Shown: in pieces, positions 40,267 through 40,796 of the stretch
Layout: each line of letters begins with the position of its first letter
Position numbering within the stretch: the stretch's first letter is position 1
DNA from: Escherichia coli
Lineage (GTDB): Bacteria; Pseudomonadota; Gammaproteobacteria; Enterobacterales; Enterobacteriaceae
Strand: one strand, 5' to 3'
DNA length: 64,000 nt
Assembly: GCF_003334355.1 (NCBI RefSeq)
Contig: NZ_QOWP01000024.1
The notes under the pieces: model-generated
Database searches by the model: none
What the model was told of the DNA's origin: nothing
Seen by the model: the letters and a program-made list of their open reading frames with translations, nothing else
Program-made: the position numbers and the translations under genes

Positions 40267-40274
40267 TTTCATTG

Positions 40275-40310
40275 ACAGCCACATCATGATGACCGTGGCT
40301 GTTAGTTTTT
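40275..40310 (+). terminator. Intrinsic terminator after lsrK
   Basis: Stem acagccac/gtggctgt with a 12-nt loop, followed by tagttttt. Confidence 0.5.
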
Positions 40311-40796
40311 GAGTATAGTTATTCTTATTTCCCTTCTTTTAGAGCTGGCTTGTTAAAAGCCAGCTTGCAGATTCATCGTTCCATCACCAGTACTATATTC
40401 AAGGGAAAATTGCTATTTTTCTTAAAGCATTAAGCACAACCCTTATTTTATAGCGAATATTCCTAAAGACACTAATGGATGCAAAAGGGGTTTAATAAAC
40501 TTCGATTTTTAGCAATTAGTGCTATTCTTTGTTAAATATGATGATGATAATTTTCCTATTGAAAGAAACAGTTTTCTTATTAAGCAACAATAACTCATAG
40601 TTCATATTTAAATAAAATAAGAACTATGCAATTTTTAATCTATCAATTCGAAAGCATTAGCAAATTAGCCAAATTGACACCTTCCCACCTCCAACTAACA
40701 CTCAATACAGACCTCTGACAATTTAATAAGTTTCATTTTTAATGTCTGACGACTCATCTCTTTCGTGGCTGTATTGTTTGTATATGGAGCGTTTAT

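Follow-up and report, generated by a model that had tools for sequence, protein, structure and literature searches.

A MarA-bound marbox in the AT-rich, H-NS-bound spacer between lsrK and the yneO-type autotransporter gene of Escherichia coli, a probable composite control region

Antigen 43 (flu/agn43), with its OxyR/Dam phase variation, is the best-studied autotransporter switch of Escherichia coli, and activators of the MarA type usually work at about 40–70 bp from the transcription start site. The spacer between lsrK and an AIDA-type autotransporter gene, analyzed here within a 64-kb stretch of E. coli DNA (the window), shares with agn43, which encodes a self-associating protein, a regulatory spacer ahead of an AIDA-family autotransporter and conditional expression; 40267–40796 contains no GATC site, which rules out an agn43-type Dam/OxyR methylation switch. 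With the promoter islands ycgV/ychF and yfaL/ypaB (PMC3661553) it has in common its AT-richness, a length above 300 bp, a place upstream of an AIDA-type autotransporter gene, H-NS binding in all ChIP studies compared and holoenzyme binding in vitro. Unlike those islands, its density of promoter-like sites in our scan does not exceed what composition predicts, and it carries a conserved marbox, a putative core promoter and a leader, so that it does not appear to be merely a cloud of spurious promoters. The MarA regulon (marRAB, ycgZ, mlaF, xseA; PMC5684230) offers a third comparison: its members, like this spacer, have a near-consensus marbox bound both in vivo and in vitro, and the spacer marbox differs by one base each from the ycgF<>ycgZ and grxA<>ybjC sites of the published table. 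It departs from that regulon in its placement, with the marbox centre 282 bp upstream of the autotransporter start codon and the site ~194 bp from a conserved candidate −35/−10 pair, TTGACA-17-AACACT. The likeness to H-NS counter-silencing by AraC/XylS-family proteins, in which repressed adhesin and virulence genes are relieved and to which the spacer compares in having a sequence-specific site for a protein of that family in H-NS-coated AT-rich DNA, far ahead of a surface-protein gene, is a functional analogy only. On these comparisons and the evidence given below, we read the spacer, with a probability of roughly 70%, as the composite control region of a yneO-type autotransporter, off by default under H-NS and receiving mar/sox/rob input through the marbox.

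By both the ORF list and the RefSeq annotation of the identical locus, the spacer measures exactly 530 bp from the end of the lsrK stop codon at 40266 to the autotransporter ATG at 40797, in agreement with the 530-bp non-coding stretch described in the initial annotation (Table 1). The RefSeq annotation of this E. coli region gives the order lsrACDBFG / lsrRK / autotransporter / hipBA. The autotransporter (1806 aa) matches the NCBIfam model NF011422, ‘ECSE_1600 family autotransporter’, over its full length (4175 bits, 1–1806/1806), begins with MNRIYRVIWNC, an extended signal-peptide (ESPR) motif, and is the ortholog of the K-12 pseudogene yneO (b4696; older names ydeK and ydeU). Pseudogene forms occur in K-12, O157:H7, H10407 and others, and 6 of the 12 strains inspected have a disrupted copy; in many lineages, the regulation of the gene may therefore be under weak selection. 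The spacer itself was found in 4225 of the 5426 complete genomes of E. coli, nearly always as a single chromosomal copy, and has no annotated feature in K-12 or the RefSeq genomes, the identical locus included. Because it is identical to the spacer of ETEC H10407 at 530/530 positions and to that of K-12 at 529/530 (the single differing base is at 40394), maps published for these strains apply to it directly. The marRAB operon lies 21 kb from the spacer, within the same 64-kb window.

Table 1. Features of the lsrK/autotransporter region, in coordinates of the window.
Feature	Position	Strand	Basis and details
lsrK, autoinducer-2 kinase, upstream gene	38674–40266	+	ORF list; RefSeq annotation, K-12
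530-bp intergenic region	40267–40796	.	= NC_000913.3 1598087–1598616 = ETEC H10407 1716830–1717359
lsrK intrinsic terminator (predicted)	40275–40310	+	8-bp G+C-rich stem ACAGCCAC/GTGGCTGT, 12-nt loop, then TAGTTTTT
Second hairpin, 9-bp stem, 5-nt loop	40343–40365	+	RNA fold; without T-run on either strand
AT-rich core / ‘promoter island’ 1596197_345 (U00096.2)	40366–40710	.	PMC3661553 Table 1
Marbox GCACTAATTGCTAAA, MarA/SoxS/Rob-type	40508–40522	-	Consensus match; published MarA binding
Candidate core promoter TTGACA-17-AACACT	40674–40702	+	Best-scoring σ70-like pair; conservation
CTGACA-17-TTTAAT, predicted yneO promoter	40715–40743	+	RpoD holoenzyme SELEX, PMC3946193 Table 2
Leader, nearly invariant, Shine-Dalgarno GGAG (40786–40789)	40752–40796	+	Conservation across lineages
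ECSE_1600-family AIDA-type autotransporter, intact	40797–46217	+	NCBIfam NF011422; RefSeq annotation

The whole window has a GC content of 0.47, the spacer one of 0.321 and 40400–40700 one of 0.286. Equally AT-rich 530-bp windows make up only 0.09% of those in the 64 kb, every one of them overlapping this spacer, which makes it the most AT-rich stretch of its length and bears out the AT-richness first noted; several shorter spacers in the window have comparable GC contents (0.295–0.35). The ‘long A/T tracts’ of the initial annotation hold for A/T-only runs, which extend to 17 nt (40604–40620), and not for homopolymers, which reach 5 nt at most; the 43-mer quoted there was located at 40608–40650 and is 81% A+T. 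Its statement that there is no ORF stands at a threshold of at least 60 aa in the ORF list and fails below it, where two short ORFs of 30 aa (40626–40718, plus strand) and 53 aa (40723–40884, minus strand) occur. Its title term ‘untranslated region’ claims more than is known about transcription within the spacer.

The 5′ end of the spacer folds strongly, with a predicted free energy of −41.8 kcal/mol for 40255–40385 (z = −5.5) that 0 of 200 shuffles attained. By this fold, the first ~45 nt are the predicted lsrK intrinsic terminator rather than promoter DNA. The hairpin begins 9 nt past the lsrK stop codon, and its 12-nt loop, partly paired in the fold through a 3-bp inner stem, exceeds the 8-nt limit of the consensus terminator scan, which is why that scan missed it. 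Among nine divergent E. coli, 40267–40316 shows zero substitutions; the changes there are deletions only, in two strains and 3′ of the core stem of the terminator, and of these 3 bp (TAG, 40303–40305) fall between the stem and the T-run. The second hairpin is weakened in its stem by common polymorphisms at 40344 and 40358 and is E. coli-specific, being missing from the non-E. coli lineages; it therefore gives no clear sign of structural constraint.

Two strong hairpins at the 5′ end, together with a 30-aa ORF that is open in every E. coli lineage checked, could point to a gene for a small RNA or a short protein within the spacer; a small RNA was the alternative named in the initial annotation. 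We regard such a gene as scarcely plausible. Termination of lsrK accounts for the hairpins, and an Rfam search of 39800–41300 at E ≤ 10 returned noise only, the best matches being eukaryotic, plastid or otherwise unrelated families that scored 10–21 bits against gathering scores of 36–100. The proximal region, leader included, folds worse than shuffled sequence, and the absence of annotated features in K-12 and RefSeq genomes argues in the same direction. As a gene, the 30-aa ORF was rejected: it lacks a Shine-Dalgarno sequence, shows three amino-acid (non-synonymous) changes across the E. coli lineages and has no ATG in L020, one of the two lineages outside E. coli described below.

Published data place both H-NS and RNA polymerase on the spacer. 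Table 1 of Panyukov and Ozoline (2013; PMC3661553) includes it as ‘ydeK(-)/lsrK(-), 1596197_345’ among the promoter islands, scores it ‘A’, that is, H-NS-bound ‘according to all studies’ (Grainger, Kahramanoglou, Oshima), and scores it as linked with horizontally acquired genes; two other cryptic autotransporter genes, ycgV and yfaL, are likewise preceded by H-NS-bound promoter islands in that table. The island coordinates given here are approximate, as they assume a genome-version offset of 1976 bp, which agrees with the hipB and lsrK entries. Genomic SELEX marked an H-NS site and an RpoD holoenzyme peak in the yneO/lsrK spacer (Shimada 2014, PMC3946193, Table 2), and an RpoS holoenzyme peak was reported in a later study (Shimada 2017, PMC5493296). 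The initial annotation had suggested an H-NS-silenced promoter and a check against H-NS ChIP data. That check finds ydeK/lsrK bound in all compared studies, so that the spacer is an H-NS target by published ChIP and SELEX; the ‘silenced’ part is deduced from this occupancy, because a search of papers and supplements returned no value for yneO/ydeK expression in an hns mutant. Conditional expression of the adhesin, also proposed at the outset, is consistent with the 2.2-fold increase of ydeK on Cpx activation (PMC2731931), which shows that expression is condition-dependent.

In our motif scans, the published high-affinity H-NS motif was not enriched in the spacer relative to shuffles, and CRP, IHF, Fis, Lrp and CpxR motifs, as well as an LsrR-like palindrome used as an improvised placeholder motif, were not meaningfully above shuffles. 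An RcsAB-box-like element at 40452–40465 was rejected as being at chance level with 3 mismatches. Promoter-like −35/−10 pairs numbered 27, a count that ranks within the highest 10% for 530-bp stretches of the 64 kb and below that of mononucleotide shuffles of the spacer itself (38 ± 11). Such figures, with promoter-like sites and H-NS motifs no commoner than composition predicts, would be expected if the spacer were inert AT-rich DNA beside a decaying gene, bound by H-NS and RNA polymerase through AT-richness alone; the pseudogene state of the gene in K-12, O157:H7, H10407 and others agrees with this view, as does a nucleotide diversity of the spacer (π = 0.041) not far under that of lsrK fourfold sites (0.059). 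What weighs against it is the strong local conservation of the marbox, of 40607–40626 and of the last 130 bp, and the persistence of the same blocks between lineages whose proteins are 74–80% identical and whose upstream genes differ. We therefore consider inert DNA a highly improbable explanation.

These conserved islands were located with two measures of diversity, π among nine divergent E. coli and heterozygosity among 53 distinct haplotypes from genomes and metagenomes. While the spacer as a whole can be set against fourfold π values of 0.059 in lsrK and 0.080 in the autotransporter gene, its last 130 bp show a π of 0.007–0.022, 3–10 times below synonymous sites, and its most variable segment among the nine E. 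coli, 40467–40516, a π of 0.109. Among the 53 haplotypes, heterozygosity dips to 0.009–0.017 over the marbox and the adjoining 20 bp on its right; directly to the left of this trough lies the segment where the spacer varies most (0.12–0.14), and to its right a segment more variable than the trough (0.077). A further conservation island covers 40607–40626. Constraint thus appears patchy, lying mainly in the marbox and the last ~130 bp. This restriction, the lsrK terminator and the MarA site had all been missed in the initial annotation.

The marbox at 40508–40522 is the sole match to GCAYNNWNNRYYAAA in the 64 kb and fits the asymmetric consensus GCAYnnWnnRYYAAA, which its natural variants still fit. 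Table 1 of Sharma et al. (2017; PMC5684230) lists a MarA ChIP-seq peak at H10407 position 1717096 with a MEME site, gcactaattgctaaa, centred at 1717112 and assigned to ETEC1580/yneO, and purified MarA bound gcactaattgctaaa in a gel shift at 0.3 µM, the lowest concentration tested. This 15-mer is the reverse complement of window positions 40508–40522, and by the H10407 annotation the MEME centre stands inside the spacer, 283 bp from the autotransporter ATG. The ChIP experiment used MarA overexpressed from a plasmid, and the paper names the gene in Table 1 only; a search of the literature returned no value for an effect of MarA on yneO expression. The MarA site offers a concrete candidate for the ‘condition’ under which the adhesin is expressed. 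Judging by the family, SoxS and Rob probably bind the spacer marbox as well.

The GCAC end of the marbox is proximal to the autotransporter gene, and the site is ‘forward’ when read on the minus strand. This direction would suit a marbox that has no role for the adhesin, either as a non-productive high-affinity site or as an element serving a minus-strand transcript antisense to the lsrK 3′ end. Minus-strand promoter-like pairs are found at 40535–40505 and 40472–40445, with TAAAAT at 40450–40445 kept in L020, and 18 of the 33 published MarA ChIP peaks have no σ70 peak within 150 bp (PMC5684230). We nevertheless judge this reading unlikely on the evidence of the related loci. Two lineages outside E. 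coli could be compared: Pseudocitrobacter vendiensis, with a protein 80% identical and a BLUF-EAL protein and an MlrA/BluR-like regulator encoded upstream, and L020, with a protein 74% identical and a 2Fe-2S protein encoded upstream on the other strand. In Pseudocitrobacter the marbox abuts the preceding gene, being only ~23 bp from the stop codon of an upstream gene on the same strand, too close for a conserved leftward promoter to fit in between, and there is no lsrK to which a transcript could be antisense; a leftward antisense role is therefore unlikely. Furthermore, the position and orientation of the site are fixed relative to the autotransporter ATG and not to the upstream gene.

A consensus marbox was found 277–284 bp from the ATG in 78/78 related sequences having at least 300 bp of upstream DNA; Pseudocitrobacter and L020 are among them, with the site at 277 and 283 bp, respectively, and its orientation unchanged. 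For Pseudocitrobacter, a marbox at that position and orientation arose in 2 of 10,000 shuffles (2e-4). When the distal spacers of E. coli and Pseudocitrobacter are compared, the best local alignment is not significant, as 30 of 300 shuffles reach its score, and it is because the surrounding sequence cannot be significantly aligned that the marbox match is informative. The footprint comprises three lineages because further sampling gave no others: a scan of genome contigs yielded 4 loci, of which 3 were E. coli-like sequence attributed to contamination or mis-binning, a protein search yielded mostly E. coli fragments, and a metagenome scan yielded 64 loci, all of the E. coli type. The fixed distance in the 78 sequences, the two foreign lineages included, implies that the travelling unit runs from the marbox to the ATG, ~290 bp. 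As judged by sequence comparison, this putative cassette (marbox, AT-rich spacer, core promoter, leader) accompanies the gene into differing genomic contexts, and the marbox, one −35/−10 pair and the leader appear to be under purifying selection and to move with the gene.

The −35/−10 pair in question, TTGACA-17-AACACT, lies ~90 nt from the ATG and, judged by its conservation, is the likeliest core promoter. Its hexamers TTGACA (40674–40679) and AACACT (40697–40702) are invariant in the 53 E. coli haplotypes, and all three lineages keep TTGACA and xACACT unchanged and share the longer conserved block xACACTCAAnACAGAC; the conserved block ACACTCAAnACAGAC covers 40698–40712, and the predicted start falls near 40709. 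The −10 hexamer matches the consensus at only 3 of 6 positions. A stringent σ70 promoter scan of the region gave no match, its −10 rule also rejecting TTTAAT, and a search of the literature and supplements found no experimental transcription start for the autotransporter gene. The SELEX-predicted promoter CTGACA-17-TTTAAT was rejected as a conserved promoter, as it is kept within E. coli and not in Pseudocitrobacter or L020.

The leader differs at 0–3 of its 45 nt across the three lineages, whose proteins are only 74–80% identical, and its mean heterozygosity in E. coli is 0.003. GGAG, the Shine-Dalgarno sequence, precedes the ATG by 7 nt. The fold of the putative leader shows unusually little structure (z = +2.2), with 199 of 200 shuffles folding equally well or better, and a structure sequestering the Shine-Dalgarno sequence was rejected since the leader folds worse than shuffles. 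The combination of an unstructured leader with GGAG accords with an mRNA that is competent for translation, and not with a riboswitch-like element.

A distance of ~194 bp between marbox and candidate core promoter exceeds the range at which MarA is known to contact RNA polymerase. It would be too great for classical class I or class II activation at that promoter, so that MarA would have either to remodel the H-NS complex or to act on a separate distal promoter. In the latter case, MarA, SoxS or Rob would be a classical activator of a promoter just 3′ of the marbox, with a start near 40535–40580 and an mRNA leader of 220–260 nt; H-NS binding would be secondary, and the TTGACA/ACACTCAA block, like the proximal 130 nt, would function in the RNA or serve as a second promoter. 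In E. coli, conservation is as high over the 20 bp that follow the marbox on its right as over the marbox, these 20 bp and the adjoining DNA offer −10-like hexamers (TATGAT, 40537–40542; GATAAT, 40546–40551; TGcTATTCT, 40520–40528), and the constant distance from marbox to ATG in three lineages, as well as the usual working range of MarA-type activators, would agree with such an arrangement. None of these −10 candidates, however, is conserved in L020 or Pseudocitrobacter, and GATAAT loses its critical A2 in several E. coli lineages, for which it was rejected as a MarA-dependent −10. The marbox spacing of 11–20 bp and its orientation misfit the activating class II geometry, and marbox overlap of this kind is closer to the repressive arrangements of rob, purA and hdeA. 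In addition, the proximal leader has no stable RNA structure. We regard a distal promoter as possible but rather doubtful.

The reading of the spacer as a composite, H-NS-governed control region would proceed as follows. The first ~45 nt would end lsrK transcription, as the predicted fold suggests. The AT-rich core, ~40366–40710, is occupied by H-NS in growing laboratory cells according to the binding data from K-12, and this occupancy probably holds the adhesin gene off or very low. The high-affinity marbox inside the core is bound by MarA, according to the binding data from H10407, and stress signals of the mar/sox/rob type would enter through it, making expression conditional. Transcription would start near 40709 from TTGACA-17-AACACT, to which conservation points, and the unstructured leader with its good Shine-Dalgarno sequence would let translation proceed once mRNA is made.

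How a bound marbox might act within this control region is a more tentative matter. It may be a remote, stress-responsive counter-silencing element at which MarA, SoxS or Rob loosen H-NS and switch on an AIDA-type adhesin, carried between genera with its cassette; we put this forward as a hypothesis by analogy rather than as a classification, and as one with clearly less than an even chance of being right. Neither the literature examined nor our own analysis holds evidence of MarA displacing H-NS at this or any locus, and to our knowledge a counter-silencing mode from ~190 bp upstream has not been described for MarA. In other genera, RamA is presumably a possible binder in place of MarA, SoxS or Rob.

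The region as such was already known, as it has an entry in the published promoter-island/H-NS list and in the MarA ChIP list. What is new is the MarA site as a conserved, position-fixed part of a putatively mobile ~290-bp cassette, and a conserved promoter candidate that differs from the SELEX-predicted one. In one respect little changes, for the spacer is one more AT-rich, H-NS-bound spacer before a cryptic E. coli adhesin; it has modest value as a test case of a high-affinity MarA site at a non-canonical distance inside an H-NS patch. If MarA does control the autotransporter, signals from antibiotics and stress would act directly on surface adhesion, which would extend the known MarA–biofilm connection (ycgZ-ymgABC), and if the counter-silencing hypothesis is true, the antibiotic/oxidative-stress regulon would be tied to adhesion or aggregation. 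That the gene so often becomes a pseudogene beside a well-kept control region also provides an example of how silenced accessory genes decay.

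The autotransporter gene (window 40797-46217) is intact in this genome, while in 6 of the 12 E. coli strains inspected it is broken by a frameshift, a truncation or an IS insertion, namely in K-12 (yneO), ETEC H10407, O157:H7 17B6-2, 300444, KN12-1 and L37 (IS1). The loci concerned are L002, L007, L009, L010, L012 and L087, besides the window gene. The disrupted-gene strains retain 93-100% identity in the upstream spacer, with the exception of L37, where most of the spacer has been replaced by IS1.

Mobile elements have struck this spacer in both E. coli ST540 and strain L37. 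In ST540 (L008 1217-3315), a Tn3-like TnAs1 remnant stands in place of lsrK and the first 215 bp of the spacer, and the 315 bp from the marbox to the ATG are left intact beside it. In L37 (L009 4001-4800), IS1 leaves only the first 36 bp of the spacer, and the 5' end of the gene is also lost.

The orthologous autotransporter of Pseudocitrobacter (L004/L017, 1-3000) lies immediately 3' of a cluster comprising ymgB, a divergent BLUF-EAL (bluF-like) gene and a MlrA/BluR-like gene. A second marbox match was found within the ymgB<>bluF spacer (L004 283-297), an arrangement that parallels the E. coli ycgF<>ycgZ MarA site; the latter differs from the yneO site by a single base. The marRAB operon itself maps within the window (coordinates converted from K-12). 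Roughly 21 kb separates it from the MarA site, so regulator gene and target are close chromosomal neighbours. The neighbourhood of the spacer is generally abundant in H-NS-type DNA: further very AT-rich intergenic spacers occur in the window, and some of its AT-rich spacers, such as ydeO/safA and ydeP/ydeQ, are H-NS-marked in published tables for the region.

Features located in the window
Feature	Position	Details
marRAB operon	~18700-19800	minus strand
marRAB region ORFs	18927-19361; 19330-19764	144 aa each
Hairpin	40343-40365	9-bp stem; between lsrK terminator and AT-rich core
Near-palindromic element	40452-40465	AGCGAATATTCCTA
AT-rich intergenic spacers	7866-8140; 52064-52396; 54677-55195; 55958-56325	GC 0.30-0.35

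Two smaller elements were noted in the spacer. The hairpin carries no T-run on either strand, and common polymorphisms at 40344 and 40358 weaken its stem. The second element contains the near-palindrome GAATATTC; in its place the non-E. coli lineage L020 has GGAATATTCC, whose 10 bp are perfectly palindromic. The element resembles the RcsAB box, agreeing at 11 of 14 positions, but equally good matches occur at chance frequency within the window.

Among the genome contig matches, three (L003, L005 and L006) are fragments 92-100% identical to the query's E. coli-type autotransporter in assemblies labelled 'Candidatus Nanosynbacter' (MAG), Marinomonas and Limosilactobacillus vaginalis; these probably represent contamination or mis-binning in public records.
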